Positions 8,487-25,990 of a stretch of DNA of 57,410 nucleotides are shown in pieces. The position numbers and the translations under genes are program-made. Source of the stretch: Patescibacteria group bacterium (GTDB taxonomy: Bacteria; Patescibacteriota; Patescibacteriia; UBA9934); contig JBAZWW010000007.1 in the NCBI GenBank assembly GCA_041660165.1, positions 1-57,410 of the forward strand, written 5' to 3'. The notes under the pieces were generated by a model. The model did no database searches. It was given only the letters and a program-made list of their open reading frames with translations, and was not told the DNA's origin. Each line of letters opens with the position of its first letter. The first letter of the stretch is position 1.

Positions 8487-8882
8487 CTACAGGGGCTTAC
8501 ATGTCTGAATTATAGCACAGGCGAATTCCATGACCGGATGGTAAAAAATGGCGATCCCGACCCCCACCGCACACAGCGCACACAACAAAACCGCACCTGC
8601 CATCATATCCTTCACATCTCGCACCATCGGACTCAATCGAGGCTGAACCGCATCAGCTACTCGCTCAATAATGCTATTGATAATCTCCAAAATAAGCACC
8701 GCTGAACACAAAAGAACAAGCAAAATTCTCTGCCACGCCTCAAGACGAAAGACGAACATGAAGGCAAGAACGGCAATGGTGGCGAGTACCTGAATGCGGA
8801 AACTTTGCTCGGCAGAAAAGAGCTCGGCCAGGCCTCTGAGCGCATGCTTGATTGAGCGAAAAAATGTACGGATGACAATCAT
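8487..8882 (-). CDS. dgkA: diacylglycerol/undecaprenol kinase (prokaryotic DagK family)
   Basis: Three-TM small kinase with LEIINSIIERVADAV and VRDVKDMMAGAVLL. Conserved ybeY-dgkA order. Confidence 0.8.
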   Translation of the reverse strand: MIVIRTFFRSIKHALRGLAELFSAEQSFRIQVLATIAVLAFMFVFRLEAWQRILLVLLCSAVLILEIINSIIERVADAVQPRLSPMVRDVKDMMAGAVLLCALCAVGVGIAIFYHPVMEFACAIIQTCKPL

Positions 8883-9304
8883 AGGGATGAAGCTACAATG
8901 GCGTCTTGCAAAGGGAACATCACTTCCGCATCTTCTGCCTGTTCATGGTCATAGCCTAACACGTGGAGGATGCCGTGGACGAGGAGATCAGTCAGTTCGA
9001 GTTCAAGGTCTCCGTCTTCAGCTTGGCGCACGGCTTGCTCGAAAGAAATAACGACGTCTCCCAGATACCCACTCATATCCGCTTGAGGTGAAGCAAAGGA
9101 CAGCACATCCGTCACCTTGTCCTTCTGCCGATACATCCTATTTAATCGCCTAATCTCCTCATCCGTCACCGCGCTCAAGGAAACAACGCCCTCTGGCGCC
9201 GTTTTCAGCTGCTTCTCAAAGGCGTGGGCGATCTTTTTCAACCTCGCGCTTGAAAAACGGTGCTTGGCAGGAATTAGCTCTTGAGCAAGGTCAAAGGTGA
9301 TCAT
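8879..9304 (-). CDS. ybeY: rRNA maturation endoribonuclease YbeY
   Basis: Zinc motif HGILHVLGYDH. 4-nt overlaps with both neighbours. Confidence 0.9.
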   Translation of the reverse strand: MITFDLAQELIPAKHRFSSARLKKIAHAFEKQLKTAPEGVVSLSAVTDEEIRRLNRMYRQKDKVTDVLSFASPQADMSGYLGDVVISFEQAVRQAEDGDLELELTDLLVHGILHVLGYDHEQAEDAEVMFPLQDAIVASSL

Positions 9305-10299
9305 GGGAGCAGAGTTAAGCTGTTCAGCATCATCTGGAAAGTGGTCAAGTACTCGATAGTCGTTTCCTCACCGAGCGAGTACGTCAAAGTAAACACCTTG
9401 CTCCCACCGTCTATATACGCAATGCGCTCATCCCGCTTGCTTAGGGCGAGCAAGCCCTGTGACGTATACGAAGGCTCAAGTGGCTGAGAATTTTCACTCG
9501 GCACGGTCTGCTGATACCACACCTCAAGATTTTCCGTTGGGTCTTTGGCAATCGTCGCGATCACAATAGAGGCAGTGCTGGGCGAGCGAAAAGTAACGAA
9601 GCCCGTTGTTGCGTCAACCACCGGCGTCCAAGTGGACGGATAGTAAATAGTAAATGGTGCTTCGGGACTTTGGAAAATTCGTACAGCTCCTGTGTCGAGC
9701 AAAGTCTGTGGCGCACTACCGTTAGGATGATAGCGATGAAAAACTTCATTGCCGTCAAGGAACGTATCGCCGTCCGTATCAGGATTTCGGTAATCAGTAC
9801 CGTAAAGGAGTTCCTCCACGTCCGTCAATCCGTCAGAATCCGTATCCTTGCCCGGAACTGGCACGGTTGCCACAGGAACTGGCTCCGGCACGGGTACGGG
9901 CGTTGGTTCAGGCGGAGGCGCTGTAATAACAACAGGAACTGGCATGAGGAAATAATAGTAATACGCGCCTACGCCACCCCCGGCAATCAGCAAAAGAAGC
10001 AAAAACAGGAAGATGACCACGCCAAATTTTCTTCGTGGGGCAGGCGGCTGAACCACCGGAGGCTTTGGACCAGGCGCAATGATCGGCGCCTGAGCAACGG
10101 GCGGAGGCACTGGCGTCGGAATAGGAGCCACGGCCGGAACAACAGCCGGCACGGAAACCGGAACAGGAGCGGACAACGGCTGAGCCGGCCTGCCCAAAAA
10201 CTCCCTCGGCATAACATGAAGAATCATGTCGTCCGTTTTTACGGCCGATGTCTGAGGAGCTTGGCTAGCTGATTGTGGCGCAGTCTTGTTACCGAACAT
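9301..10299 (-). CDS. membrane-anchored surface protein with TSP3-type Ca-binding repeats (paralog 1, 332 aa)
   Basis: Pro-rich N-terminus, one TM helix (VVIFLFLLLLLIAGGGVGAYYYYFLM), a PEPTPVPVPEP linker, DTDSDGLTDVEELLYGTDYRNPDTDGDTFLDGNEV, then a 170-aa unknown domain. Confidence 0.75.
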   Translation of the reverse strand: MFGNKTAPQSASQAPQTSAVKTDDMILHVMPREFLGRPAQPLSAPVPVSVPAVVPAVAPIPTPVPPPVAQAPIIAPGPKPPVVQPPAPRRKFGVVIFLFLLLLLIAGGGVGAYYYYFLMPVPVVITAPPPEPTPVPVPEPVPVATVPVPGKDTDSDGLTDVEELLYGTDYRNPDTDGDTFLDGNEVFHRYHPNGSAPQTLLDTGAVRIFQSPEAPFTIYYPSTWTPVVDATTGFVTFRSPSTASIVIATIAKDPTENLEVWYQQTVPSENSQPLEPSYTSQGLLALSKRDERIAYIDGGSKVFTLTYSLGEETTIEYLTTFQMMLNSLTLLP

Positions 10300-10318
10300 A
10301 GATGGAGCCGAGACTAGG

Positions 10319-10972
10319 CTATGGTGTTACCGGTATCTGCAAAAGCTTTCCGGGACCGTTCGGATTGAATCCCGCCGTCACCTCAGCGCCGTCTAGGAAG
10401 CCGTCACCGTCAGTATCGGTGCGGAGAGGATCCGTTCCGTAGACTTGCACCTCTTCCTTGTCCCCCAGACCGTCGCCATCCGTATCGGGATTGGTTGAGG
10501 ACGTACCAGCTTCAAGCTCTTGCGCATTTGTCAGTCCATCGCCATCACTGTCAAGAAACGTGCTTTGCCCGATCGTAGCGGTAGGCGGGGTGGCAACGTC
10601 TGGCAAAGTTGGCGCTGGCTCCGTTGGAACGGCGTTCGCATCAACAGTGCTCGCCGGCACCAGGGGCGCTCCCACCGCCGGCGTCTCAGTCTGCGGAACA
10701 ATCATCGTACTCTGAACAGGCTTCATGATGAGCGCGTATGCAAGGTAGGCAGAGCCGGCAATAACGACGAGTGCAACGAGCAGGATGATGATCGTTTTCA
10801 ACGTACCGCCCTTTGAAAGGGCGGGGTTTGAAACCCCGCCTTCTTGCGGGGCAGGCATCACCGGCGCCGGCGCGGACGATGGCGTGATTGGTGCTGGTGC
10901 TTGGGCGGGGTTTGAAACCCCGCCTTTATCTGTTCCTGCAAAAATATCTTGTGGTTCTTTGGAATCGAACAT
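10319..10972 (-). CDS. membrane-anchored surface protein with TSP3-type Ca-binding repeats (paralog 2, 217 aa)
   Basis: One TM helix (TIIILLVALVVIAGSAYLAYALI). C-terminal DSDGDGLTNAQELEAGTSSTNPDTDGDGLGDKEEVQVYGTDPLRTDTDGDGFLDGAEV. Confidence 0.75.
   Translation of the reverse strand: MFDSKEPQDIFAGTDKGGVSNPAQAPAPITPSSAPAPVMPAPQEGGVSNPALSKGGTLKTIIILLVALVVIAGSAYLAYALIMKPVQSTMIVPQTETPAVGAPLVPASTVDANAVPTEPAPTLPDVATPPTATIGQSTFLDSDGDGLTNAQELEAGTSSTNPDTDGDGLGDKEEVQVYGTDPLRTDTDGDGFLDGAEVTAGFNPNGPGKLLQIPVTP
10820..10840. repeat. intragenic palindromic 21-mer GGCGGGGTTTGAAACCCCGCC (copy 1)
   Basis: Part of an identical 24-mer (GGGCGGGGTTTGAAACCCCGCCTT) that recurs 84 nt away. Each copy encodes GGVSNPA in gene 10319..10972. 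Confidence 0.9.
10904..10924. repeat. intragenic palindromic 21-mer GGCGGGGTTTGAAACCCCGCC (copy 2)
   Basis: See 10820..10840. Confidence 0.9.
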
Positions 10973-10976
10973 ATTT

Positions 10977-11801
10977 TTATTTTTTCAGTGGATCATGTCC
11001 TGACGCTACCTCCGCCCCATCAGTATACCCGTCTCCATCGGTATCCGGGTTTTTTGGGTCAGTAAAGTATTTGGTCAGCTCTTCACCATCAGATAATCCG
11101 TCTGCATCCGTATCCACAGAGTTGAATCCATCAAGACAGCCAGCGCGCGTTTCAATCGGAACCGCGTCGCAAGCCTTGATATCCCCAGATGCTACAGCAA
11201 CAGCCGTTGCGGTGGACCGGCATTCGCTCTCCGGCACTCCAAAACCACTACAATCATTCGCTAAACGCGCCTTATCAGTGACCATAACTTCACAACCAGC
11301 CCGCACAGCCAAATCAACCACTGTCTCGCATAACGAATATTTCTTGTCTAAAACGGCTTTTGTTGAAGTGGCCACATCTGTACAAGAAATTTTTTCAGCT
11401 CCCTCAAGCGAAGCACAGGCCTCAGCCGATCCCGAATCAATCGCAATAAGAGACAAGCAGTCGGCAAAAGCTGGTCCCGTCAAGCCGTTGCACCCGTCCG
11501 CAAATCCGACAGCTCTGGCGGCATCGGATTGCGGTACGCCACTATTAACCATGTCCGCCACGGCTGTTTTCTTTTCTGCCACTACCGCCTTGGCCTGCCT
11601 GTTAGCTTGAATCATGTTCGCCGTAAAGGCAATAATGAATCCGCCGACAATCATGGCCACTACTACTGCGCCCACGATCATGCCAAAATGACGCTTTTTA
11701 TAAAGCGGGACCGGTACGGCTTCAGGTTCCGGCGTCAGCGAGTAGAAAACCTGCTGAGGCTGGGACTGAGGTGGCGATGGTGGTTGGAGTACGTCCGGCA
11801 T
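10977..11801 (-). CDS. membrane-anchored surface protein with TSP3-type Ca-binding repeats (paralog 3, 274 aa)
   Basis: One TM helix (IVGAVVVAMIVGGFIIAFTANMI), a Cys-containing middle domain, and C-terminal DTDADGLSDGEELTKYFTDPKNPDTDGDGYTDGAEV. Confidence 0.75.
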   Translation of the reverse strand: MPDVLQPPSPPQSQPQQVFYSLTPEPEAVPVPLYKKRHFGMIVGAVVVAMIVGGFIIAFTANMIQANRQAKAVVAEKKTAVADMVNSGVPQSDAARAVGFADGCNGLTGPAFADCLSLIAIDSGSAEACASLEGAEKISCTDVATSTKAVLDKKYSLCETVVDLAVRAGCEVMVTDKARLANDCSGFGVPESECRSTATAVAVASGDIKACDAVPIETRAGCLDGFNSVDTDADGLSDGEELTKYFTDPKNPDTDGDGYTDGAEVASGHDPLKK

Positions 11802-11804
11802 ACG

Positions 11805-14800
11805 TTAAGGAGCGCAGTAATTAAGACGGACATCGGAAATCGTAATCTGGCCCGTTCCGCCAAAGGAAACGTGAATCGGCACCTGCTGTTCATGCACGCC
11901 GTCGCACTTCAGAAACTCTGGCCACGGAAGAACCTGCCCCGCGCCCTCATGCAAAACTACGGATGAAGCCACAACCGTGTTATTGGCGTCCGCGCTGAGG
12001 AGAGAAACCGTTATTCCCGTAATAGATTTAATGATCCCATCATAGGCGCTGGCCAGTTCAGTTGGCGTATGAGCGTCATAGGCGTAATCCACTCCATTGC
12101 TGGTATTTGTTTCAAGCGGACCGGTCCTCAGAGAGAAAGAGTTGCTTGACCATTTCTTCATGTTCTCAATGAGCGAGTACGTGTCGGTTAAGGCCACGGT
12201 ATAAATCTCATAATCTCTTTGTGATGCCTTAATACTATCGGCTGCGTCGTTAGTAACGGATAGCGCGTCTGCAGTTCCTTCCGGTTGTCCGTCAGAAAGA
12301 AGAATGATGATGTTGCGAGTATTGCTGGCGTTCGGCAGAGCATCAAGCAGGCCCTTGGCTGAAAGCAAGCCAAGCCCGGTCTGCGTGCCATTCTGCGCCT
12401 TGGCATCATAGGCATTGATACGGGAAGTGAGCGTGGTCTTTGCGTCCTTACCGCAGAAACCAAAAGTACAAACAGTCTGACTCTGCATCTTTGCCGTACA
12501 AATGCCTCCAGCCCCACACTCGCCATCTACAACGCCATCACAACTCTGGTTGTATAGATCATTGTGTGGTCTTGGATTTGTGCACATACCCGTCCCAGCG
12601 ATACCTGAGAAGCCAACCAAACTAATGTGCGCATGCTCGCCAAAAGCAGTAAAGACGGAGTTCACGGCAGTGGCCAAGGATGCCTTAACCGCATTGATGC
12701 GCGATGGATCAACGTAGTTTTGATTGATAGTAACCCCGTCAGCCTTGTAAAGACTCCTCCCTGCAAAATCCCAATCCATGGAACCGGATCTATCAGTAAC
12801 GAACACAATATTCACTTCCGGAGGAGTCACATTGTTCATGGAAACCGTCCCCGTGAGCTGGCCCACCAATGTACAGGCCGGAATGGTCAGAGTGGCCGCG
12901 TTCGGCAAAAGCGAAGTTGATGAGGAGCTGTAACTGTTCAACTCCACGCTTGAGGAGGCCCTGGATCCTGGAAGATTCGGCAGTAAGAGCGTGGGGTTGG
13001 TTGAGAAGGAAAATGGACAAGCACTGGCACAGCTATTGGAGCATTTTGGTTTTACACAAGCGATGCCGGTGCCACAAACCGTCATGTCGTACGGAATAGA
13101 AGAAATCGTTGTGTTAGTGCAATACTCGCCATTGCGGGGACCGCCATTGCAAATCCCAAGGTCAGCACAGTGATAAAGATCCTGGCCAACAGTTGTAAAA
13201 CCGGTTGGCGTAGAACATGAACCGGCAGTCTTGCCCGTCCCGGCATCATAATATGTCAGCTGAACATCAGAACCGTCGCAAAACTCAGTACCATTTCTTA
13301 CGCCGTCTCCGCAGAAAGCACCTGATGAAACCACATTTCTACAAGACACGGAGCACGCCGTACAGGTAGATCCGTAAGTTGAGGAACAGGACTGGCCGTT
13401 CTGCACGCCAAGATCACATTCTTCAACGCCTACATAATAGGCACCATCGCCACACACATTCGTCTTGCAGGAATTCGTACAACTATCAGAAGAATCCGTG
13501 TTGCCATCATCACACTCCTCACTCCCTTCTTTCTTGCCATTACCACAGGCAGAGAGAGCGGTGCACTTAATAAACCGGTAATTTGGAGTTACCCACTGAC
13601 AGGCCGTTCCATTACTGCCGTTGCCACAGGCCCGGATGCGAGAAGTCTGATAAGTCTGAGCCGAACATATGCCATCTGTTCCGCAACTGGAGTTTTGCGC
13701 ACAAATATGTCCAAGCTTGGCAGGATCTCCCGCCGTACAAACGGTAGAAAGAGGGCAAGCATCCGCCCACGCATACGGCCCAAGCGCAGTCATACCGCAT
13801 GTCCCGCCGGATCCGCAATCCGCATCCGTAGTACAAGGAGCACCGGTTTTTGTAGCCCCCGGAGTACACAGCTTGCCCTGATATGAATCGGTATTGCCAT
13901 CACAAACCTCGCCATTCCCCGCGTCCACTTTTGTGTCCCCGCAATAGGACGCAGGGCCAGAACAATCCCACGCGCAAGAAGAAGTTGCAGACGATTGATA
14001 AACGCCGTTCAATCCTCCGCAGATGCCTCCGCCAAATGCTCTGCGCCCAATGAGAGGAGGGGTACTTCCGCAATCACATTTCTCGCTACCAGCAAGCGAG
14101 CCATCTCCGCAGGAGAAACCGCTAGCCCTGGTACAATCAAATCCGCAAAAACCGTATTTACCGTTTTGCGCGCCGTCATCACATTCCTCCGCACCTTCTT
14201 TTAAGCCGTTGCCACAAGCATTGCTGACGCAGGCAGATCCCGAATCCGGAACAAAGGCTGTACACGAGGCATTACAAACTTGCGAGCGGAAACCGTCATT
14301 CACGCCGTCATTATTGCCATCGCAGGCCACCACCAGACCACCATGCTGGCCAAGCTCACACGTTTCGCCCCCGCCAATAACGCCATCTCCACAGGAAGCG
14401 GAGGTGCCATATGTCACACCCACGCAATATGACGCAGGGATGAAGCCATTACCCGTGTTCGCCGCTCCGCCAATCAAAACATCCACCCGGTCAGCTGGGC
14501 CATCCGTATCAATCGGACTGCCCCACTGCGCAGAGTATTCCAAGTCTGCAGTAATGCGCGCCGAACGGTTGCCCGTGGCAATGTAGTGATACACGTGCGA
14601 ATTGACCGGACAAACATATGCGCCCTTTGACTGGTCTACGCATGTAGCCGAATCAAATGAGACAAACGGACCGCCAGCGTTCCCGCAAGAATTCTTTGAA
14701 AAGACGTTCAAAGGGTCCTGTGCAATATCTTTCATCTCAAGCGCCCCGCCAAGGATATCGCTCCAAGACGGCCACGGACTGACGGCGATACTGCGCACAA

Positions 14801-17800
14801 AAGTTCCTGCGGACAGTTCCGGAACAATCGGAATGCATGATTCCGTTCCAGGGCACTCCCCGCCTGTACTACAAAGCTGAGCACCTGTCCCGCTACAAAC
14901 ACCGTTTTGTGTCCCGTACTTCTTAATTTCCGTACGCAAATCAGTCATGTCAGAAAGTCTTCTGATATCTCGGCGAACCTTCGCTTTCACGGAAGAACAC
15001 GCACGTGGAGAAATAGGACTAAGAGGACAGTCGCTATCGGCCGAGCAAGACGCGCTTGTCACCGCGCCGTTTACCGTACAGAGCGTCACGTCATTCATGT
15101 TAGAAGCAAACGCGAATGAAGACAGCAAAGCATCAGCAATTTTCTTCGTGGTGTCGCTCGCTCCATCATTATACGAAATGACGTAAATATTATCGTACAA
15201 CACGTTTGCCCCCAGATTCGGCGCGGCCACATAGGTTGACCGGCCGTCCTTCACCGCCAAAAAGCCATCAATCGTTGTCTCCTGCGGGGTTCCCTTAAAA
15301 TTCTGTGCCGTGTACCACGCGCGCGGAGAAAGGTAATCCGGGTTACTAAGAACCCGAACGCCAATGGCATCGCCTGATCCGTCCGCAGTTTCAAACAAAT
15401 ATTCCTTAATCACCCCTCCCGCCTGTGAGACAGGGGGCCTCACCACCGTCATACCCGGCAAATCGTCTGACACGCCGGCTATACCCGCGTCACGGCAGTA
15501 ATACGTAGAGAAATTCATCCAGCCGTTAGCCCCTTGCGACGCCAAGCCGTTCGCCCCGCCCCTGGCCGTATCTTCCCAAGGAAACTTGGATAATTCCGGC
15601 CACGGATTTTCACAAAGGAACGCAATAAGTGGCGCGGTACCAGAAACCACTTTCTCCCTTGGCGTGCCCGTGGTGGAGCCAAGAGCATCCGTAGTAATGG
15701 TTGCCTCAGCCAAAAGCGTGCTTCGGCCGTTCTTGCCCTTCACCGCCACATCCGCCAAATCATGCTGGGTGGCGCTCCTGGTGGCGGTAAACAAATCAGC
15801 ATTTGCCGGGGCCCACGCGGTGTAATCCCAAGCGTATGTGCCAGGGAGCGATTCAATCTCGCGCGTGGCGTTGCCTACGTATGAAAGCGCGCTTGTTTTG
15901 AACGTATGCACATCATCTCCGCGCGTAAACGCATTCGGGCTCTTCTTGTTTGTGTCGAGTACCTGAACGGCATCAAGCGAACACAGGCTCGGACCCGTCA
16001 TAAACACGGAAGAGACGGTTCCGCTCATGCCAACGCCTGTGGCCGAACGCACGCCGTCAGTAACCGCGTCTGAGATATCTTCATCTCCCTTCACAACAAG
16101 CATGTATGTAGTATTTGGCACAAGCGGTTTTGAGTAGCGCAGGTACACCCTATACGTTCCATCCGCTTGAGGAACCTGGTCAAAACCGTCAATCGGAAGA
16201 ACGCAGGCAACACCCGTATTTGGCGCCGCCTCAGCAGACGCGCCGGTCAAAAATCTCACAAAAGCATTTCTTGCCTGCGCAAAAATATTCTTTGGATCAT
16301 GCGCCAAATACGTGTAACCGGACGGACACGCGCCTGCAGTTAAGGAGTGGAATGAAAGATACATTCGATATTTCTCCGTAGTGATGGCCCCCGCCGTTTC
16401 TTTAAACGTAAAACTCGACGTGTCCATCTTTTGATTGAAGACGGCGTACAGCGATTGGTTCAAGCACACGGAGGTGCCGGAAGACGGATACGGAACCGCG
16501 GTTGGGCGAAGCGAACAGCAATTGTTTGTTCCCGCACCGTTTAGCCGTGGGTCACGGCAGTCCCGGTCTGAAGATGCCGAACAGGCAAGCGAGAGGCTGG
16601 CGGTAGTTGAAAGCCCCGAAGAAGATTCCTTAACCTCAATTGATGCGTTAGCCATTCTTGTTACGGCATCCACTTCAAATACCGCATCATCACGAACAAC
16701 CGCCGTTTGCGTAGGATCAATTCTACCGTCGCCACCGGCACTGACCTCACAGGAATAATTTTCCCCAGCGCCCAAATTCCCATCACCGCAATACGATGGA
16801 ACAAGGTACTGCGCGCTTGAACCCTCAAGGAGACAAGTGCTTGAACAGCCATCGCCGGAAATCCTGTTCCCATCTTCACACTCCTCACCCGTTCCCGGAA
16901 TAATATCCCCGCAGACTGATGGTGCCGTATAACGCGATGAAGAACCCTCAAGCAAGCATGAGGAAGAACAACCGTCGCCATTCACAATATTCCCATCATC
17001 ACAATTTTCTGCTGGTTTGTCCGTCCGGTCATCACCGCAAACTGCTCCGCCAATGGAAGCAAGCGTTGGCGTCCCCTCATTCAAACACTGAGAAGAACAG
17101 CCGTCGCCATTTTTTGCGTTGCCGTCATCACATTCCTCGCCAGCCTTAGTGGTTGTATCCGCGGCAATGTCATGGTTCCCGCACGTGGCGCCAACAAAAC
17201 GCGAACCCTCCGCCAGACAGAGTGAAGAACACCCGTCTCCGTCTGCTTTGTTCCCGTCATCGCAATCCTCACCCGCTCCAGAAGATGAACGTTCTACTCG
17301 GCCATTCCCGCACGTCGTGCCGGCGGTCGAGTTCCCTTCTCGTAAGCAGGAGGAAGAACAGCCGTCGCCGTTCGCTACGTTGCCGTCTTCACATTCCTCG
17401 CCCGCCAGTGCGTCTGCCGTGCCGTCCCCGCAAATAGCGGAATACGCCACGCTTCCTTTTGACGTACATGAAGCGGTACATGACGTTGAGACAGATGACG
17501 GAGAAGTGTCAACCATTGTTCCGCCCAGCCACTCAGCTACCCTGGTAGAAGAGTCATTATCAATATTTTGGTCTTTGATTGGATCCGTCCAGGCCCAGCT
17601 ATAAGAGAACCCCGTCAAGCGCTGGCCAGATGCGGAACAGCTATCCGCCGCGCCAAATGCTGAGGAAGAAAATGAGGCGCGATCCCCCGTTGAGCGGAGC
17701 GTGATAGCAGAAGGGGCGAGCGCTACGCGGTCAACCGCACACGCAGAGCCGTCTTCCCTGGCCCGGAACGTCCAAGAATAATCTCCGCCATCATTTGTTT

Positions 17801-20800
17801 GAATAAGACGAACTCCACTTTCGCTTGTGACACTGCCGGAAATAACCGCCCTGTAGAACGTGCCGGGTGTCAGAGCCAGATTGCCCAGTGTGAAGCCGGT
17901 GCACAGCCCCTGCGCGCCCGTCACAGTCACACAAGATGCCCGGACTCCGCCGATTTCCGTCACACTCGTACAAAGCTCATACGCGCAAGAGAAAAGTTTT
18001 ACAGCACCAACACGTTCAACACTGGATGAATTCATGGGGATATTAAACGTTCCGCCCACCTGCGCGTTTGGACAAGCTGAATCACAGGCCGGCCACGTAC
18101 CAGTCACATAAGGATCAAGGAAATTGATGGCCAGGTTTCCAGCTGATTTGATATCGCTACCCGTCTCTGAAGCCGTCACCGGGGTTTCTCCCTCAGCCAG
18201 CGCCTCAACCGTAGTACAGGCAGAGGCTCCGCCAACGCAGGCCGGATTCGCCGCGCTGTTGAAACGCGTAATAGAGGGACTAGCATCCCAGCTCCAGGAA
18301 TAACTAGCTGAATCCACAGGGACACAACCCGCAGTGGGAACCGCGCTAAATGATTTCGTTCCGCCAAGAAGAGTAATGACGCCCTTGGCCGGAGTGACGC
18401 GCACGCTGTCAATGGTGCAGGGCGCGCTTGTTGCCTGTGTCACGAAGGTCCAGGAAACATCGCGAGCGAGCCCGGCCCCGCCCGTGGAGACCGCCACCGT
18501 GGTCACCGTTACTCTGTACGTTGAGCTGACCGCCAGCGAAGCGCCTGGAATAAAAGTGAAGGATGTTGGCGTCGTTCGGAGAGTTCCTGAAGCAGAGATA
18601 ACGGCTGAACACGGGTTTGTACCCTGGCCGGTACAGCGGTCCACTTTCACGGCGTCATTCAGCGTTCCCTCATTCATAGCCTCCGTAAATTCTGCGTACA
18701 CCACCGCATTCGTACACACCAAATCCGTAAATTTGTTATTTGGCACGGCACTCACCCGATCCGCTGAACATTCAGTCACCAGCTGTGGTACATGAGGGAT
18801 GGCACCCGTAGAAAAACTCCAAGCATAGCCAGCGGTTGATCCCGCGCCGGCGGATACACCGCTCGTTACCTCAAAAAAGGTATCGTTCCCCTTTGTACCC
18901 GTGCTCGAAACCAATTTTACAGCTCCCGTTTTTGCCGCGGAAGGAACAGGAACTTTAATTTCCGTTGGCGACCAGGAAGCAATATTCGTCTGTGCTCCAT
19001 CCGCAAACGTAACGGTCCCCGTTGCCGTTCCGAATTGATTGCCAACCAGAGACACCGTGTCTCCTACGGCGCCAGTGCCAGGAATGACTCCGCAAACATT
19101 CGGCGCGCTATCATCAGCTGTAACTGTAAACGGCACCGTATTTGATGATTGACTGCTTGATGTTGTTACAGACACGTCATAGACGCCAACAGCCAGCGCC
19201 ACAGCAGAAGTATATTTTGCGGGAACAATGAAGCGGATCTGGTTGTTCGTCCATGGATTGATGGCGGAGCACGCCGTAGGGAAATCAATACTGCCAATTG
19301 CGGAATCTCCCGTAGCGCGGTTCACAAACTTCACTGTCCCCTTTGACGCGCCAAAGTTCGCTCCGTCAAGCGTGACATATCTGCCGATTCCGCCAGTTGC
19401 CGGAGAAAGCGTTGCTATAGATGGCAGGGTCCCTGTAGTTGAGACAGTTGAGGCCACGCGCAAAGAAAGCGCATTCGAAGAAATGCCATTCACGGAAACA
19501 GAAACAGGGAACGTACCGTTTGGCATCTGAGGCACTGTTGTCATGATTGAAGAGTTCGTCCATGCTGAATAGCTTCCCGCGCTCCCCTGCGTGCCAAAAT
19601 TCACCGTAGATGTTCCGCGGTTCGCGCCAAAATTATCACCAATTAGCCCAAGGGAATTTGTAGGAGAGACACTGTTTTTGTCGAGCGAACAAAGATTCGG
19701 ATGGATAACCGTATTCACGGCAAAGTTTGGAAGCACCGGTCCGTGATCATTAGCGGTGTCATCTTTCCTTGTCCCCCCGCTTGCAGTAACCGTAATTAGT
19801 CCGGAGACTGTAGTTGCTGGAACAATGACAATGATTTCTCTATCCGTCCAAGCACCTCCGCATGGCGCAACCACCGCCTCAACAGGACCATTCGCTCCCG
19901 TAAAGGAAACCTTCCCGGCAGAAGAACCAAAACCCGTACCGGCAATGGTTACATATGTTCCTGGCGCTCCAGAATCCGGCGATACCGCATTGATCACCGG
20001 GTTTTCAACACATCGTCCGGCCTCGCACAGACCGCTTCCGCAATCGGCATTTGCCGTACACGCGCCCCCGCTACACGCCCCGCAAAAATTCGGGCTGAGC
20101 GCGTCACCCCCGCAATCAATACCCGTTTCGCCACTTCCCGTATCAAGAATCCCGTTAAAGCAAGAGGCAGGTTTCACCCTCACCGTCACCGCATCAGTAT
20201 CCGTGTTGCCGGCCAGATCAGAAACCTGGGCAGAAACGCGATAGGATTTTCCGTTCTCTAGTCCGGCAGTATCCCAAAGGTCATCAATCGTCACGCTCTT
20301 CAAATCAGCGCCCGTAGCTGTCACCTCATCAAACAGGACATCACCAACTAAGAAACCGGCGGAAGCCACGCCCGCATCATCCGTAGCCTGAACCTGTACA
20401 GGTTGAGTGCTATCAGCAGGAACCGTTTGGTTATTGTCTGGCAAGGTCATGTGCGCTACCGGATTCTTCGTATCAACCACGGCCCCGCTCGTGAACCCGC
20501 CGGTACACGGCTTGGCAGTTGAACAGGTGAGCGTCAGGCCAGCTGTGCTCTTGAGCGTTGGTAAAACAGAAATTGAATAGGCGGTGGACGCGTCAAAACA
20601 GAAACGAGTCTCATTCGGCGTAGCGCATGGCGCGTCAGGATGGAAAGTGATCGTATTGCCGGCCACGGAAGAAACGCCAGGAACTTCAACATTGGTGGTT
20701 GAGTTCACAATCTTCAACTGGCCGTTCATGCTGGCCGGATCAATGGATTTGCTGAACGTCACGCGAACCAGGGCGTTCTGAATAGTGATCGTTCCGGCTG

Positions 20801-21290
20801 GCGAAATACCCGTCACTAATAGCTCTGAAGCTCCCCCCGTCCCGCCTATTCCCCCGCCCCCTCCACCCGCACCACCTCCGCCCCCTCCCGCACCACCAGC
20901 GCCCGTAGCACTCAAAAGTGCGGACAAGATAAAACTGACAATTGACCAAGAAAGCAGAATGATAACCAGCCCGATAGCTCCGCCAATCAAGATCTTCTTA
21001 GCTCTGCCCACTTTTTTCTCATCACCCGCAGCGGTCATCCACACAAATCCGCCGTAAAGCACAATGACCACCGCCACCACGCCAAGGAAAGAAATGGCCG
21101 TCCGGATAATCCGCGCAACAATAATCTTTGGATCAGTATTCCCAAGCCCGGTAGCATCGCCCACCGTGGTTAACCCGGTCTGGACATCACTAGTCTGCGC
21201 AAACGCCGGGACCGCAAATGCCAAGGAAGACACGGCGCTCAAAGCGACGAGTGACCCAAGCGCAAGTTGTTTAAGGCGTTTTATGTTCAC
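11805..21290 (-). CDS. giant multidomain surface protein (3161 aa): pilin-like membrane hairpin, poly-Gly linker, Ig-like and IPT/TIG repeats, Cys-rich repeats, C-terminal vWA
   Basis: Single uninterrupted 9486-nt ORF. Domain calls rest on motifs listed in the sub-features below. Antisense ORFs in the track are shadows. Confidence 0.9.
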   Translation of the reverse strand: MNIKRLKQLALGSLVALSAVSSLAFAVPAFAQTSDVQTGLTTVGDATGLGNTDPKIIVARIIRTAISFLGVVAVVIVLYGGFVWMTAAGDEKKVGRAKKILIGGAIGLVIILLSWSIVSFILSALLSATGAGGAGGGGGGAGGGGGGIGGTGGASELLVTGISPAGTITIQNALVRVTFSKSIDPASMNGQLKIVNSTTNVEVPGVSSVAGNTITFHPDAPCATPNETRFCFDASTAYSISVLPTLKSTAGLTLTCSTAKPCTGGFTSGAVVDTKNPVAHMTLPDNNQTVPADSTQPVQVQATDDAGVASAGFLVGDVLFDEVTATGADLKSVTIDDLWDTAGLENGKSYRVSAQVSDLAGNTDTDAVTVRVKPASCFNGILDTGSGETGIDCGGDALSPNFCGACSGGACTANADCGSGLCEAGRCVENPVINAVSPDSGAPGTYVTIAGTGFGSSAGKVSFTGANGPVEAVVAPCGGAWTDREIIVIVPATTVSGLITVTASGGTRKDDTANDHGPVLPNFAVNTVIHPNLCSLDKNSVSPTNSLGLIGDNFGANRGTSTVNFGTQGSAGSYSAWTNSSIMTTVPQMPNGTFPVSVSVNGISSNALSLRVASTVSTTGTLPSIATLSPATGGIGRYVTLDGANFGASKGTVKFVNRATGDSAIGSIDFPTACSAINPWTNNQIRFIVPAKYTSAVALAVGVYDVSVTTSSSQSSNTVPFTVTADDSAPNVCGVIPGTGAVGDTVSLVGNQFGTATGTVTFADGAQTNIASWSPTEIKVPVPSAAKTGAVKLVSSTGTKGNDTFFEVTSGVSAGAGSTAGYAWSFSTGAIPHVPQLVTECSADRVSAVPNNKFTDLVCTNAVVYAEFTEAMNEGTLNDAVKVDRCTGQGTNPCSAVISASGTLRTTPTSFTFIPGASLAVSSTYRVTVTTVAVSTGGAGLARDVSWTFVTQATSAPCTIDSVRVTPAKGVITLLGGTKSFSAVPTAGCVPVDSASYSWSWDASPSITRFNSAANPACVGGASACTTVEALAEGETPVTASETGSDIKSAGNLAINFLDPYVTGTWPACDSACPNAQVGGTFNIPMNSSSVERVGAVKLFSCAYELCTSVTEIGGVRASCVTVTGAQGLCTGFTLGNLALTPGTFYRAVISGSVTSESGVRLIQTNDGGDYSWTFRAREDGSACAVDRVALAPSAITLRSTGDRASFSSSAFGAADSCSASGQRLTGFSYSWAWTDPIKDQNIDNDSSTRVAEWLGGTMVDTSPSSVSTSCTASCTSKGSVAYSAICGDGTADALAGEECEDGNVANGDGCSSSCLREGNSTAGTTCGNGRVERSSSGAGEDCDDGNKADGDGCSSLCLAEGSRFVGATCGNHDIAADTTTKAGEECDDGNAKNGDGCSSQCLNEGTPTLASIGGAVCGDDRTDKPAENCDDGNIVNGDGCSSSCLLEGSSSRYTAPSVCGDIIPGTGEECEDGNRISGDGCSSTCLLEGSSAQYLVPSYCGDGNLGAGENYSCEVSAGGDGRIDPTQTAVVRDDAVFEVDAVTRMANASIEVKESSSGLSTTASLSLACSASSDRDCRDPRLNGAGTNNCCSLRPTAVPYPSSGTSVCLNQSLYAVFNQKMDTSSFTFKETAGAITTEKYRMYLSFHSLTAGACPSGYTYLAHDPKNIFAQARNAFVRFLTGASAEAAPNTGVACVLPIDGFDQVPQADGTYRVYLRYSKPLVPNTTYMLVVKGDEDISDAVTDGVRSATGVGMSGTVSSVFMTGPSLCSLDAVQVLDTNKKSPNAFTRGDDVHTFKTSALSYVGNATREIESLPGTYAWDYTAWAPANADLFTATRSATQHDLADVAVKGKNGRSTLLAEATITTDALGSTTGTPREKVVSGTAPLIAFLCENPWPELSKFPWEDTARGGANGLASQGANGWMNFSTYYCRDAGIAGVSDDLPGMTVVRPPVSQAGGVIKEYLFETADGSGDAIGVRVLSNPDYLSPRAWYTAQNFKGTPQETTIDGFLAVKDGRSTYVAAPNLGANVLYDNIYVISYNDGASDTTKKIADALLSSFAFASNMNDVTLCTVNGAVTSASCSADSDCPLSPISPRACSSVKAKVRRDIRRLSDMTDLRTEIKKYGTQNGVCSGTGAQLCSTGGECPGTESCIPIVPELSAGTFVRSIAVSPWPSWSDILGGALEMKDIAQDPLNVFSKNSCGNAGGPFVSFDSATCVDQSKGAYVCPVNSHVYHYIATGNRSARITADLEYSAQWGSPIDTDGPADRVDVLIGGAANTGNGFIPASYCVGVTYGTSASCGDGVIGGGETCELGQHGGLVVACDGNNDGVNDGFRSQVCNASCTAFVPDSGSACVSNACGNGLKEGAEECDDGAQNGKYGFCGFDCTRASGFSCGDGSLAGSEKCDCGSTPPLIGRRAFGGGICGGLNGVYQSSATSSCAWDCSGPASYCGDTKVDAGNGEVCDGNTDSYQGKLCTPGATKTGAPCTTDADCGSGGTCGMTALGPYAWADACPLSTVCTAGDPAKLGHICAQNSSCGTDGICSAQTYQTSRIRACGNGSNGTACQWVTPNYRFIKCTALSACGNGKKEGSEECDDGNTDSSDSCTNSCKTNVCGDGAYYVGVEECDLGVQNGQSCSSTYGSTCTACSVSCRNVVSSGAFCGDGVRNGTEFCDGSDVQLTYYDAGTGKTAGSCSTPTGFTTVGQDLYHCADLGICNGGPRNGEYCTNTTISSIPYDMTVCGTGIACVKPKCSNSCASACPFSFSTNPTLLLPNLPGSRASSSVELNSYSSSSTSLLPNAATLTIPACTLVGQLTGTVSMNNVTPPEVNIVFVTDRSGSMDWDFAGRSLYKADGVTINQNYVDPSRINAVKASLATAVNSVFTAFGEHAHISLVGFSGIAGTGMCTNPRPHNDLYNQSCDGVVDGECGAGGICTAKMQSQTVCTFGFCGKDAKTTLTSRINAYDAKAQNGTQTGLGLLSAKGLLDALPNASNTRNIIILLSDGQPEGTADALSVTNDAADSIKASQRDYEIYTVALTDTYSLIENMKKWSSNSFSLRTGPLETNTSNGVDYAYDAHTPTELASAYDGIIKSITGITVSLLSADANNTVVASSVVLHEGAGQVLPWPEFLKCDGVHEQQVPIHVSFGGTGQITISDVRLNYCAP
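12140..12821 (-). other. von Willebrand factor A (vWA) domain with MIDAS motif, interrupted by a Cys-rich insert
   Basis: VNIVFVTDRSGSMDW (the DxSxS MIDAS motif; Asp codon at 12792..12794), later NIIILLSDGQP and YTVAL. Confidence 0.7.
13010..14400 (-). repeat. Cys-rich repeat region, block 2 (degenerate CGDG/CGNG...ECD...C units)
   Basis: SCGDGVIGGGETCELG, ACGNGLKEGAEECDDGAQNGKYGFCGFDC, ACGNGKKEGSEECDDGNTDSSDSCTNSC, VCGDGAYYVGVEECDLG, FCGDGVRNGTEFCDG. Boundaries are approximate. Confidence 0.6.
16790..17445 (-). repeat. tandem Cys-rich repeats, block 1 (about 6 units; CG(D/N)G..EECDDGN..GDGCSSxC)
   Basis: CGDGTADALAGEECEDGNVANGDGCSSSC, CGNGRVE..GEDCDDGNKADGDGCSSLC, CGNHDI..GEECDDGNAKNGDGCSSQC and further units. 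Matches the myxococcal cysteine-rich repeat / DUF4215 pattern. Boundaries are approximate. Confidence 0.7.
18850..20000 (-). repeat. IPT/TIG-like Ig repeats (about 4-5 units) within the giant protein
   Basis: Recurring P-x-I-x-x-(V/L)-SP-x-x-G-x-x-G-x-x-V-T-(I/L)-x-G-x-x-FG units: PVINAVSPDSGAPGTYVTIAGTGFG, LPSIATLSPATGGIGRYVTLDGANFG, CGVIPGTGAVGDTVSLVGNQFG. Boundaries are approximate. Confidence 0.6.
20913..21152 (-). other. TrbC/VirB2-like (T4SS-pilin-like) two-helix membrane module of the giant protein, followed by a poly-Gly linker (20829..20906)
   Basis: GLGNTDPKIIVARIIRTAISFLGVVAVVIVLYGGFVWMTAAGDEKKVGRAKKILIGGAIGLVIILLSWSIVSFIL, then GAGGAGGGGGGAGGGGGGIGGTGG. Alignable with the N-terminus of the next gene. 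Confidence 0.6.
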
Positions 21291-21299
21291 AAAATTTCT

Positions 21300-23060
21300 T
21301 TAGAAGAGCGAACACGCGGTTGCTGAGGCCGTACCATTGCAACAATAGGGTTGGGATGCGGACACTCCGCATGTTCCGCCAGAAGCATCAGGGCCCACGG
21401 CGGGGACATAACAATTCTGGTACTCGTTGCGCAAATCCTGCGTTGCCTCTGTCCCGTAGACGTAGGATTTTCCATCCGTGGATTCAAGGAAAGTGCCGTG
21501 CGCAATGGTCACCACCGTTTGCGCAGGAACCTGGGAAGATGAAGCAACCACGTCGCCGTTTGCCGTCAAATACGAAAGTCTTGTCGAGTACCACATCTCA
21601 TGCGAAGTACCGCCTATCAGCTCCTTATTCGTCAACAGAATGCTATCTGATGATACTGAGGAACTCTGGAGAACGCCGTCAAACGTAGCCGTCACCGCCT
21701 GATCAAGCGGAACACTTTCTTCAGCAATGTTCGGGGCCACGGACAGGATCTTGGGGCCAGTGAGCGCAATGTCGCCCGTAGTTGAGAAGCTCCACGCATA
21801 CGCGTCCCCCGCCGAGCCATCACCGTTTCCATCAAGTGAATTTCCGGCCATATCCACCACGCCATTGTACGGGAAATTATCAGCCTGTGGCGGGGCTGTG
21901 GTGGTGGTTGCGGATTTTATGGAGACTGAGAGACTTGAACTGCCCGGCAAACACATGATGGTCTGACCGCAAGAATTTGTTCCGCAGGGATTTGCGGGAA
22001 CAAACGTCAGCGCTGTGTAGCCGTTGGAAATTTCATAGGTTCCCGGGGTAGTAGTTCCGCCCGCGCCAACCGTAATATTATCGAATCCGCTTGTGTCGCC
22101 CCTTGTACCGGTAGCTGAAGTGGGATCAATGGGCTCAGAAAATGTAGCCTGCACCGAAATATTCCTCGAATATGTGCCAGAATTCCCCGGAGTAACCGTC
22201 ACGATCGAAGGAGGCGTCAGATCGAGAACGGTGCCCGTTTCAAATGACCACTGGTATCCGCCGGAAAAACTCCCGCTAAAAATCTTGGCCCCGCCAACAT
22301 TCTTAATATCTGCGGTCAAGGCCACGGTGTACTGCACTTTGGCGCTGGCTGAACCAAGCGGATCCGCCAGCTTCAAAACAAACGTCTTGCCGTCAGCCGT
22401 GCCGTTCACCGTAATAGCACTTGCAGGCAAGGACGCCGTTGCCCCCTGCGCAGTTGGATAGATCTTCACTGAAGACGCAGTAACTGAAGCTGGATCAAGC
22501 GCATCCTTAAACGTAATCATGATCTTTGTATTCCTCGGAACACCGGTTTGATTTCTTGCCGGGAAGTGGTCGCGAATCGGTCCACTGCCGAGTGCTCCCG
22601 ACAATCGCTCAACAGACACCCCTCCGTTGTTAGCTCCCCCGCCTCCGGCCCCGCCAAAGCCCGTAGCCCCGCCAAGCGCGTTCACAATAAAGGTGGTGAT
22701 GCCGTACGCGCCAAGCGTGATCACGATACCAATCGTAGCGTTAATCAAGATGCTCTTCGCCTTCTCCACCTTCTTATGATCGCCTCCCGCTGTCATCCAA
22801 ACAAAACCGGCGTACATGAAGAGAATGAGAAAAACAACGCCCAGGATGCCAAGGAAAACACTAATAATCCGGCCTACCAGCGAAGGGAGGTCGGAATTTC
22901 CCAGCCCTGCCGTTTGCGCTACTTGATCCGTATTTGAAAGCGCCTCAGTCTGAGCAAACACCACCGGCGCGGAAACGAAAAAGCCCCCCGTCAGGACAAG
23001 GATTGTGAAAATAACATTCTTAGCCCAACGGCGTAGCATAGCTCCCGCACATTTTACCAC
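21300..23060 (-). CDS. surface protein (586 aa) with the same pilin-like N-terminal module plus Ig-like (SbsA/Big-type) repeats
   Basis: GLGNSDLPSLVGRIISVFLGILGVVFLILFMYAGFVWMTAGGDHKKVEKAKSILINATIGIVITLGAYGITTFIVNAL + GGATGFGGAGGGGANNGG (module about 22674..22910). The start could instead be Met8 at 23039. Confidence 0.85.
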   Translation of the reverse strand: MVKCAGAMLRRWAKNVIFTILVLTGGFFVSAPVVFAQTEALSNTDQVAQTAGLGNSDLPSLVGRIISVFLGILGVVFLILFMYAGFVWMTAGGDHKKVEKAKSILINATIGIVITLGAYGITTFIVNALGGATGFGGAGGGGANNGGVSVERLSGALGSGPIRDHFPARNQTGVPRNTKIMITFKDALDPASVTASSVKIYPTAQGATASLPASAITVNGTADGKTFVLKLADPLGSASAKVQYTVALTADIKNVGGAKIFSGSFSGGYQWSFETGTVLDLTPPSIVTVTPGNSGTYSRNISVQATFSEPIDPTSATGTRGDTSGFDNITVGAGGTTTPGTYEISNGYTALTFVPANPCGTNSCGQTIMCLPGSSSLSVSIKSATTTTAPPQADNFPYNGVVDMAGNSLDGNGDGSAGDAYAWSFSTTGDIALTGPKILSVAPNIAEESVPLDQAVTATFDGVLQSSSVSSDSILLTNKELIGGTSHEMWYSTRLSYLTANGDVVASSSQVPAQTVVTIAHGTFLESTDGKSYVYGTEATQDLRNEYQNCYVPAVGPDASGGTCGVSASQPYCCNGTASATACSLF

Positions 23061-25873: not shown

Positions 25874-25879
25874 AATCTA

Positions 25880-25928
25880 AAACTTTATAACGTTTCATCA
25901 CTTTAGCACATTTTATAAAGTTTGTAAA
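25880..25928 (-). promoter_or_regulatory. fic promoter overlapped by an 11-bp inverted repeat (AAACTTTATAA-N22-TTATAAAGTTT), a putative operator
   Basis: Inverted-repeat arms at 25880..25890 and 25913..25923. On the minus strand: -35 TTTACA (25923..25928), 17-nt spacer, -10 TAAAGT (25900..25905). The adjacent gene encodes an HTH. Confidence 0.45.
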
Positions 25929-25990
25929 TACGGCCTAAAACACAAATCCCCCGTCGCTTTCGCTTCGGAGGACTTGATGCTGATCTGAGA

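Follow-up and report, generated by a model that had tools for sequence, protein, structure and literature searches.

A syntenic five-gene locus of Uhrbacteria fuses VirB2-like pilin modules to large Ig-like ectodomains: a candidate surface adhesion complex

Introduction

Small VirB2-like pilins abound in the candidate phyla radiation (CPR, or Patescibacteria). A 2025 survey of CPR type IV secretion systems (T4SSs) looked for small proteins and reported thousands of these pilins, leaving their role unknown and detecting no adhesins (Quinonero-Coronel et al., PMC12102498), and a pilin array is essential in Southlakia epibionticum (Wang et al. 2023, PMC10633639). Described CPR pilins are ~110-180 aa long, often occur in arrays of 2-11 and often lie near virB4; in the CPR T4SS literature, VirB2-like pilins are considered unusual for monoderm systems, and fusions to ectodomains are not mentioned (PMC12102498, PMC12857230, PMC10633639). 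Here we analyze a stretch of 57,410 nt from a Patescibacteria group bacterium (assembly GCA_041660165.1, contig JBAZWW010000007.1, positions 1-57,410; hereafter “the window”), in which two adjacent genes, P5 and G4, encode a pilin module followed by a large immunoglobulin (Ig)-like ectodomain, and form a locus with three genes for small membrane proteins, P1 to P3. Unlike described CPR pilins, G4 and P5 are encoded within a housekeeping operon, and the 57-kb window holds no T4SS gene. The locus brings together known domain and pilin families in an undescribed fusion and gene set, and is a core trait of a phylum-level lineage, the Uhrbacteria. The initial annotation of this DNA had not recognized the combination as a described system, and our literature search likewise found no paper describing a pilin-ectodomain fusion or the five-gene set.

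Several other systems share parts of this design. [quoted passage not shown] PilB belongs, however, to the type IV pilins, with a single N-terminal helix and a signal peptide of class III, whereas G4 and P5 carry a Sec signal peptide and a VirB2-type hairpin of two helices; the fused part of G4 is also up to 3,000 aa long, unlike that of PilB, and incorporation of G4 or P5 into a filament is hypothetical. We rejected an assignment to the modular pilins of type IV pili on account of the Sec-type signal peptides, the two helices and the lack of a match to any type IV pilus Pfam family. In Myxococcus xanthus, CglB (vWA/MIDAS, disulfide-rich), CglD and MtsD (thrombospondin type 3, TSP3) present the same combination of a Cys-rich MIDAS vWA adhesin with separate TSP3 envelope proteins (PMC9946355; NF033765, NF047639), the MIDAS being needed for adhesion in CglB as in integrins (PMC9946355), and the TIGR02232 “myxo” cysteine-rich acidic repeats also occur in G4. 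The TSP3 parts of our locus, including that of P1 (to CglD), give local and weak NCBIfam matches to CglD and MtsD (21-31 bits against family cut-offs of 400-800), so far below the cut-offs that we treat the likeness as analogy and not as membership; the Myxococcus proteins, moreover, belong to a diderm, in which they are lipoproteins of the outer membrane and are coupled to the Glt motor, and none of that machinery is present at the Uhrbacteria locus.

The Pam pilus (Troman et al. 2026, 10.64898/2026.03.03.709456) is likewise a CPR-specific Ig-like appendage, thought to mediate host contact. It occurs in Saccharimonadia and Microgenomatia, where its pilins assemble by donor-strand exchange and membrane-anchored chaperones take part, and its description contains no VirB2-like module, TSP3 or vWA; given this published description (other classes, donor-strand exchange) and the lack of any chaperone-like gene in the five-gene locus, we rejected identity with the Pam pilus. 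Giant adhesins of Gram-positive bacteria and of type I secretion systems (T1SSs), i.e., LPXTG proteins such as PrgB and proteins of the SiiE/LapA type, share the long Ig-like stalk, calcium dependence and distal binding module, but are anchored either C-terminally to the wall or by an outer-membrane plug, whereas G4 and P5 are anchored N-terminally via the pilin hairpin. A sortase-anchored adhesin or pilus was rejected as neither G4 nor P5 contains LP.TG and no sortase genes lie nearby, and a T1SS adhesin was rejected from the N-terminal hairpin anchor and the absence of T1SS genes nearby.

Results

A five-gene locus between hflX and ybeY

The locus occupies positions 9301-23060 of the window (13,760 nt, 24% of its length), and consists of five consecutive minus-strand open reading frames (ORFs):

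21300-23060, minus strand: P5, 586 aa, GTG start
11805-21290, minus strand: G4, 3161 aa, a single ORF with an identical public gene call
10977-11801, minus strand: P3, 274 aa
10319-10972, minus strand: P2, 217 aa
9301-10299, minus strand: P1, 332 aa

Public gene calls for the locus are the same as this ORF listing with the sole exception of the start of P5, placed 7 codons later at an ATG at 23039 (579 aa), and the names given are “hypothetical”, “Ig-like domain-containing protein” and “pilin”. The genes are separated by 9 nt (P5/G4), 3 nt (G4/P3), 4 nt (P3/P2) and 19 nt (P2/P1), with 3 nt between hflX and P5 (24 nt if the ATG start is used) and a 4-nt overlap between P1 and ybeY; the two flanks were identified by TIGR03156 (HflX, 350 bits) and PF02130 (YbeY, 115 bits). 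ORF coordinates and model matches thus bear out the initial annotation, which had described five consecutive minus-strand genes with 3-19 nt gaps and a 4-nt ybeY overlap, filling about a quarter of the window between hflX and ybeY. Its domain calls (pilin-like, Ig/IPT, Cys-rich, vWA and TSP3) were confirmed by Pfam and NCBIfam, except that P1 reached no Pfam model and its TSP3 repeats were recognized by motif, and its view that all five products are envelope-anchored extracellular proteins is supported by their hydropathy and charge, from which each is predicted to be held in the envelope with its bulk outside. All five are acidic (net charge -10 to -108).

The N-terminal modules of G4 and P5 are pilins

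Over their first 130 residues, G4 and P5 qualify as true members of the small VirB2-like T4SS_pilin families of Patescibacteria (PF18895/PF04956). PF18895 scored 34.0 bits on G4 (37.6 on a segment) and 33.3 bits on P5, against a cut-off of 26.6, while the NCBIfam pilin-like model NF045849 gave 33 and 20 bits, respectively, below its cut-off of 40. The initial annotation had named plain signal anchors lacking a common family as an outcome that would count against it; G4 and P5, however, share PF18895 above its gathering score, and only the N-terminal parts of P1-P3 are ordinary signal-anchor helices with no family common to them. When used as a query, residues 1-135 of G4 retrieved 67 proteins of 104-210 aa, all annotated as PF18895 and about one fifth also as PF04956 (TrbC/VirB2), most of them ~40-61% identical to G4. 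Stand-alone CPR pilins of 110-180 aa reach 50-61% identity with the module. The free pilins retrieved belong to Falkowbacteria, Buchananbacteria, Kerfeldbacteria or unnamed Patescibacteria, and several are named “pilin” by NCBI.

G4 and P5 align end to end with 35 free pilins, from the signal peptide through a terminal ..SATG, after which glycines follow in the fused proteins. Free and fused pilins have in common the signal peptide, a TGLG..D motif, two helices and a K-rich loop, as well as the loop motif YGGFxWMTAAGD..KV..AKK, in which residues Y83, W88, M89, G93 and A101 are invariant or nearly so across 47 P5 orthologues. Such conservation is not expected of a passive anchor and, since the motif is kept exactly as in free pilins, suggests that the machinery handling free pilins also recognizes the hairpin of P5 and G4. 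The N-terminal module of both proteins is therefore a real pilin, beyond a mere hydrophobic anchor. By hydropathy, G4 has transmembrane (TM) segments at residues 65-83 and 108-126 joined by the loop AAGDEKKVGRAKK, with GDEKKVGRAKK as its K/R-rich part, and P5 has TM segments at 65-83 and 104-126 with the loop GGDHKKVEKAK; their Sec-type signal peptides end in AFAQ/VFAQ. Once the signal peptide is cleaved, the two TM helices and the K/R-rich loop between them would leave both hairpin ends and the whole ectodomain outside, which is the topology of VirB2-type pilins. The module makes up only the first 4% of G4 (3,161 aa) and the first 22% of P5 (586 aa), and neither protein is a small stand-alone pilin.

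A profile of the pilin module matched 94,330 clusters at 50% identity in a library of 1.84 billion proteins, a count that reflects family size and is no gauge of how frequent ectodomain fusions are, as the top of the list consists mostly of multi-pilin ORFs; it is in line with the literature, where PF18895 is counted among the commonest domains of freshwater Patescibacteria. The same profile found no match among solved VirB2, TraA and TraM chains in the PDB, so that the link to these proteins comes from Pfam only. We found no virB4, virB6, virB3/prgI or virD4 gene in the window, and tblastn with PrgJ, PrgI and PcfC of pCF10, a search of low sensitivity, gave no match in the window or in 1.5 Mb of CPR loci. 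The free pilins closest to the G4 module occur singly or in arrays of 6-12 genes, and no virB4 was present within 10 kb of free or fused pilins in the five loci inspected.

Arrays of 6-12 free T4SS_pilin genes were seen on three independent CPR contigs (L093, 6759-13752; L095, 7711-13943; L096, 7539-12207), each directly downstream of NTP_transferase and SBP_bac_1 solute-binding-protein genes and with no virB4 within 10 kb. The top matches of the pilin profile (P0308-P0455) are single ORFs with 2-17 pilin modules, e.g., P0316 (1775 aa) and P0308 (552 aa), which are either true polyproteins or arrays joined by stop-codon read-through under a wrong genetic code. Another protein, P0450 (587 aa; L097, 2341-4104), combines two pilin modules with an SLT (VirB1-like) lytic transglycosylase domain.

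P5 and G4 carry Ig-like ectodomains

P5 matched two Pfam families, T4SS_pilin (33.3 bits) and Big_5 (79.4 bits), and an AlphaFold model built from 47 sequences (mean predicted local distance difference test score, pLDDT, 82; predicted template modeling score, pTM, 0.69) shows a helical hairpin (58-90 and 95-130), a disordered hinge, three Ig-like sandwiches and a Cys-rich tail ending in ...TACSLF:

22950-23060, minus strand: P5 signal peptide, aa 1-37
22671-22949, minus strand: P5 VirB2-like pilin module, aa 38-130, from the AlphaFold hairpin, the TM pattern and the alignment to free pilins
21426-22586, minus strand: P5 ectodomain of three Ig-like beta-sandwich domains, aa 159-545, modeled at pLDDT >90
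21303-21425, minus strand: P5 Cys-rich tail, after the Ig-like domains

Foldseek matches to the ectodomain are generic tandem Ig-like arrays (the N-terminal domains of LdtMt2, the S-layer protein SbsC and titin), with no enzyme among the matches of the model. There are at least 369 full-length P5 homologues of 550-640 aa; all 120 homologues listed have the two-domain architecture, two of them without a T4SS_pilin match. The first 300 residues of P5 are built as in G4 (signal peptide, pilin module, Gly linker and Big_5), at ~30% identity.

G4 was mapped with Pfam and NCBIfam on the whole protein and with Pfam on ten overlapping segments, which revealed a long, Cys-rich stalk (138 Cys in total) and a distal vWA domain:

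21195-21290, minus strand: G4 signal peptide, aa 1-32
20913-21194, minus strand: G4 VirB2-like pilin module (PF18895), aa 33-126, with the T4SS_pilin match at 63-121
20796-20912, minus strand: G4 Gly-rich linker, aa 127-165
18438-20816, minus strand: G4 proximal stalk, from Pfam on segments
aa 159-252: Big_5 (Pfam)
aa 277-326: Big_7 (Pfam)
aa 377-430: Cys-rich knot
aa 431 to ~810: three to four IPT/TIG domains (Pfam)
aa 847-951: second Big_5 (Pfam), followed by weaker Ig-like matches
16611-17483, minus strand: cysteine-rich acidic repeats (TIGR02232/DUF4215), aa ~1270-1560
14391-16493, minus strand: central region without a strong family match (Pfam on segments), aa 1600-2300
12921-14390, minus strand: second cysteine-rich region, with DUF4215 units scattered over aa 2301-2790 and 8-11 Cys per 100 residues
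12171-12818, minus strand: vWA domain (VWA/VWA_2), aa ~2825-3040
11808-12170, minus strand: short beta-rich C-terminal end, aa 3041-3161, ending in ...RLNYCAP

The acidic repeats scored 140.6 bits with TIGR02232 (6 stretches) and 72.6 bits with DUF4215 (5 stretches), and share the unit CG(N/D)G...E(E/D)CDDGN..(N/D)GDGCSS.C. Within the central region, a sub-threshold Big_5 match was seen at ~1704-1745 (segment 1561-1913) and none in segment 1873-2225, and no PDB sequence matched this region; sequence and profile searches of the PDB with G4, the P5 alignment and the pilin-module alignment returned only IPT-like domains of amylases/CGTases, a Cys-rich repeat of pappalysin and spurious designed proteins. 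A full-length G4 orthologue of 3307 aa is present in L085, alongside collinear partial orthologues elsewhere, and the reading frame is conserved as protein across its entire length. The best-conserved parts are the Cys-rich repeats (64-76% identity) and the block 1901-2000 (62-70%), and the least conserved are the last 400 residues. In the closest species (L084, ~16791-16888), a frameshift or assembly error divides the G4 orthologue between two overlapping frames.

The vWA domain, which carries a Cys-rich insertion, forms the end of G4 farthest from the membrane anchor. On the segment aa 2809-3161, VWA scored 30.3 bits (cut-off 23.8) and VWA_2 27.1 (cut-off 27), while VWA on full-length G4 reached 22.8 bits, just under the cut-off. 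The MIDAS of G4 is complete, with D2833-R-S-G-S2837 (DRSGS), T2969 or T2971, and D3000; of 23 orthologous C-termini, most (18 by count) retain the DxS start together with the downstream (S/T)DG, and ~9 retain the full DxSxS. A distant G4 orthologue of 2,832 aa (P0446) occupies the same chromosomal place and is collinear with G4 over its first 1,000 residues (32% identity), and has a concanavalin A (ConA)-like Laminin_G_3 domain but lacks vWA. Adhesins typically combine a conserved stalk with a distal binding module that can be exchanged.

P1-P3 are bitopic proteins with TSP3 repeats and conserved cytoplasmic motifs

Each of the three small proteins has a single TM helix preceded by K/R residues, which places the N-terminus inside. 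TSP3_bac (PF18884, cut-off 25) scored 67.5 bits on P2 (3 repeats) and 48.2 bits on P3 (2 repeats):

10977-11801, minus strand: P3, with a TM helix at aa 39-64, a helical region with 10 Cys and 2 TSP3 repeats at aa 228-273
10319-10972, minus strand: P2, with the cytoplasmic motif MF..P.DIF, a TM helix at 60-82, a Pro/Thr-rich spacer and 3 TSP3 repeats at aa 139-207
P1, N-terminal part, minus strand: the cytoplasmic motif ILHVMPREFLG at aa 25-36, a Pro-rich tail and a TM helix at 92-118
P1, outer part, minus strand: a Pro-rich spacer, TSP3-type repeats at 150-190 and a PsbP/Mog1-like domain at 205-332

The Cys positions and TSP3 repeats of P3 are conserved in 36 orthologues, and the motif and repeats of P2 in 43. 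P1 carries the TSP3-type motif DTDSDGLTD...NPDTDGDTFLDGNE, invariant in 44 homologues, with invariant residues running from D152 through E185, and one of its homologues is named “thrombospondin type 3 repeat-containing protein” by NCBI; its family otherwise comprises at least 401 “hypothetical” proteins of ~320 aa. The C-terminal domain of P1 (aa 205-332) was modeled by AlphaFold at pLDDT >90 and adopts the PsbP/Mog1/DUF1795 fold, with Foldseek matches to BT_1490, CyanoP/PsbP, SciW and Tsi3. This fold is a protein-binding module in known cases.

Both P1 and P2 also display conserved motifs on the cytoplasmic side. In the P1 family, the motif reads VVIHVMPKEFxG (window positions 10192-10227, aa 25-36), with M30 and P31 invariant or nearly so, and the helix is flanked by Pro-rich spacers on both sides; in the P2 family, it reads MF...PxDIFxxV(E/D)P (10934-10972, aa 1-13). 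These motifs persist in the most distant versions of the locus and were also noted in L040, L041, L046, L050 and L067; they suggest that P1 and P2 may have an intracellular binding partner. From the adjacency of ftsA and ftsZ, the divisome could, speculatively, be that partner.

The locus is a vertically inherited core feature of Uhrbacteria

The window corresponds to the public metagenome contig k141_1617898 of ENA ERZ27249449. NCBI places the source genome in the Patescibacteria group, Parcubacteria group, Candidatus Uhriibacteriota, and the FtsZ of the window shares 54-83% identity with that of metagenome-assembled genomes (MAGs) whose titles read Candidatus Uhrbacteria, Patescibacteria group or Parcubacteria. 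A search of GTDB genomes with the C-terminal 431 aa of G4 yielded no confirmed relative, this distal part being too divergent for pattern-based retrieval, so scans were anchored on ftsZ, P5 and P1 instead. In a GTDB collection of 185,579 species (species representatives), 112 loci encode a P1 relative; among the best 80 of these 112, informative titles are all Uhrbacteria, Patescibacteria or Parcubacteria, many others being uninformative or doubtful. Many GTDB-representative MAGs with the locus and clear CPR genes (L003, L007, L010-L012, L043, L048, L074 and others) bear odd titles such as “uncultured Gammaproteobacteria”, “Kapaibacterium”, “Acidobacteriaceae” and “Binatia”, which are probably mislabels or bin contamination and were treated as such.

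Co-occurrence of the genes in relatives had been named beforehand as a check by the initial annotation, and they do co-occur. The order G4-(P3)-P2-P1-ybeY-dagK-ftsA-ftsZ was found in 51/51 P1-anchored loci with adequate flank, and the locus is present in 29 of the 49 ftsZ-anchored loci with ≥8 kb upstream, where all 29 carriers have P1 and P2, 27 have a G4-type giant and 22 have P3. No insertion is seen in the remaining 20, which belong to more distant CPR (titled Doudna-, Saccharibacteria, Kazan, Paceibacterota and others); yqeY lies directly upstream of (ybeY-dagK-)ftsA in 16 of them. The arrangement yqeY-hflX-P5-G4 is kept in four P5-anchored Uhrbacteria loci with upstream flank. Deeper branches have a simpler version, yqeY-[1-2 pilin-anchored proteins of 600-1,800 aa]-P2-like-P1-like-ybeY, with no hflX and no P3. 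Given the order kept in 51/51 loci and the absence from more distant CPR, the locus is an ancient, vertically inherited core feature of the Uhrbacteria lineage as far as gene order and sequence comparison indicate, fixed in place and not an island; the initial annotation had likewise judged it not to be an island, in agreement with this synteny and the host-like base composition.

The lengths and sequences of P5 and P1 are very tightly conserved. Between the window and its closest species, the surface proteins diverge faster than neighboring genes: identity is 66% for P5, 56% and 44% for the two halves of G4, 44% for P3 and 61% for P1, compared to 80% for hflX, 86% for ftsA and 88% for yqeY.

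One distant version of the locus (L098, 8069-20315) encodes a 631-aa protein without Pfam match at the P5 position, a 2,832-aa giant with a Laminin_G_3 lectin domain instead of vWA and two TSP3 proteins only, and lacks hflX, while its wider synteny (DprA-Pth-Der-LytR-S26-HisS-yqeY) is as in the window.

Genomic context

The locus is embedded in a string of housekeeping genes:

24175-24621, minus strand: yqeY, upstream operon neighbor
23064-24182, minus strand: hflX, upstream operon neighbor
8879-9304, minus strand: ybeY, downstream neighbor
8487-8882, minus strand: dagK, downstream neighbor
7211-8470, minus strand: ftsA, downstream neighbor
5792-7126, minus strand: ftsZ, downstream neighbor

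The region upstream of yqeY is the only sizeable non-coding gap of this string and holds the best sigma-70-like promoter match (24901-24874, a consensus match only). In a scan of the locus region, promoter-like and terminator-like matches were no commoner than in shuffled sequence, so we infer from the gene spacing alone that the five genes may be co-expressed on one long transcript, from yqeY/hflX into ybeY-dagK-ftsA-ftsZ. The GC content (0.52-0.58) and GC content at third codon positions (GC3, 0.48-0.57) of the five genes are like those of the neighboring housekeeping genes. No RNA families (Rfam scan), DNA tandem repeats (tandem-repeat scan), or integrase, transposase or tRNA borders were found at the locus.

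Elsewhere in the window, a small toxin-antitoxin/defense-like islet (24950-27212) breaks the housekeeping string between yqeY and hisS; it encodes a 307-aa HTH_3+Fic protein (24950-25873) and a 217-aa AbiEii nucleotidyltransferase (26559-27212), to which the public call adds small ORFs of 80 and 85 aa. Three consecutive minus-strand ORFs of 107, 796 and 350 aa (the last being 297 aa in the public call) at 36840-40563 adjoin relA/spoT and topA and have no Pfam match and no TM segment, the 796-aa product being highly charged and Glu/Lys/Pro-rich. A tRNA-Leu(CAA) and two tRNA-Met(CAT) genes cluster within 500 nt at 44246-44746 on the minus strand.

Discussion

Taken together, these results point to a lineage-wide cell-surface complex of Uhrbacteria for metal-ion-dependent attachment to a partner cell or surface, a reading that, judging from the sequences, we regard as probable, if by no great measure. 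In such a complex, the five proteins would assemble at the membrane, with P5 and G4 exported via their Sec-type signal peptides and held by the VirB2-like hairpin, which would serve at least as a membrane anchor. A glycine-rich hinge leads from the C-terminus of the hairpin into the Ig-like domains, and Ca2+-loaded TSP3 and acidic Cys-rich repeats may stiffen the stalk or bridge its parts, with P1-P3 placing their TSP3 calcium-binding repeats outside on Pro-rich or Cys-rich spacers. The distal head would then bind a ligand on a partner cell or in the matrix, through vWA/MIDAS here and a ConA-like lectin domain in another lineage. A hairpin that acts as an anchor only is consistent with the absence of T4SS genes nearby, while a hairpin that acts as a handle for a pilus platform is consistent with the complete, motif-conserving module and with the modular-pilin precedent of PilB (PMC8179133).

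Several observations weigh against an adhesion complex. Adhesion is read here from domain types that non-adhesive envelope proteins possess as well, an S-layer protein is among the Foldseek matches of P5, and a total of ~700 residues in G4 lack a strong family match. The MIDAS is degenerate (TTRAAS) in the closest species (L002/L084), so metal-dependent binding by the vWA domain would not be universal. Adhesins are, moreover, normally variable, and a rigid conservation tied to ftsA/ftsZ is unusual for them.

The same features can be arranged differently. G4 and P5 may be modular VirB2-type pilins, extracted from the membrane by a T4SS-like platform into a pilus of small VirB2-like pilins and displaying the stalk and vWA head as tip or minor subunits, which would make them T4SS-pilus equivalents of the modular type IV pilins known from Streptococcus sanguinis. 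Free pilins are indeed very common in CPR (the 94,330 clusters mentioned above) and found in arrays, and Uhrbacteria are, as we assume, members of the GTDB class ABY1, a class reported to be well represented among T4SS-bearing CPR. The module is also complete, ending exactly where free pilins end (..SATG) and before the Gly-rich hinge, and it keeps the loop motif of free pilins. The solved structures of T, N and F pili have positively charged residues of the loop lining the lumen, in contact with phospholipid (10.1101/2022.04.28.489814). CPR T4SSs are suspected of making pili (PMC12857230, PMC12102498), and PilB provides a precedent for a pilin with a vWA module (PMC8179133). We nevertheless consider this arrangement unlikely: neither the window (for virB4, virB6, prgI and virD4) nor the low-sensitivity tblastn of 1.5 Mb of CPR loci provided a platform, the most similar free-pilin arrays also lack virB4 within 10 kb, and solved VirB2, TraA and TraM chains are not detected with the pilin profile. 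An ectodomain of 3,000 residues per subunit could not be packed along a shaft, so that only rare or terminal incorporation is conceivable.

Quite unlikely, in our view, is a structural role, in which the five proteins would form a fixed coat, spacer layer or trans-envelope connector linked to division, coupled via the P1 and P2 motifs to, e.g., FtsA/FtsZ. The invariant position just upstream of ybeY-dagK-ftsA-ftsZ in 51/51 loci would fit such a scaffold, as would the very tight conservation of P5 and P1, the cytoplasmic motifs VVIHVMPKEF (P1) and P.DIF..V(E/D)P (P2) with the Pro-rich spacers flanking the P1 helix, and the resemblance of the P5 ectodomain to the S-layer protein SbsC. However, other CPR classes have yqeY-(ybeY-dagK)-ftsA-ftsZ without the locus, hence division does not need it and the adjacency may be positional only; the distal head is of an adhesin type (vWA with MIDAS, or lectin) and swapped between lineages, the surface proteins evolve faster than neighboring genes, and the SbsC match reflects the generic similarity of tandem Ig-like arrays, at a TM-score of ~0.15. 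That the locus is large, codes for surface proteins and is absent from the same site in other CPR classes could also suggest an adhesion island gained by horizontal transfer, or a giant ORF that is an artefact, but we judge either to be highly improbable: GC and GC3 match the neighbors, mobile-element borders (integrase, transposase, tRNA) and DNA repeats are absent, protein-level conservation of the G4 frame runs from end to end, and an island is effectively refuted by synteny, with identical gene order in 51/51 species-level relatives and divergence that tracks the flanking genes.

Beyond the adhesion complex that we favor, T4SS-type pilus platforms of CPR might generally use VirB2-like hairpins as a “handle” to take up and display large functional ectodomains, the Uhrbacteria cargo being a 3,000-residue integrin-like adhesin, with the calcium-binding bitopic P1-P3 coupling the apparatus, through conserved cytoplasmic motifs, across the membrane to an intracellular partner, possibly FtsA/FtsZ. 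We offer this as a doubtful proposal; if true, modular T4SS pilins would form a new class, and a tiny-genome monoderm would possess a trans-envelope device for adhesion.

The locus bears on how CPR bacteria attach to partners and surfaces beyond a few cultured Saccharibacteria. It offers concrete targets, namely a vWA head with MIDAS, calcium-binding partner proteins and conserved cytoplasmic motifs, and provides a simple genomic marker for the surface apparatus of this lineage. In Uhrbacteria, a pilin module fused to adhesin-type ectodomains is a core, syntenic trait throughout a phylum-level lineage, which raises the question of whether the “T4SS pilin” modules of CPR are always pilus subunits, or may sometimes serve as a lineage-specific membrane anchor.

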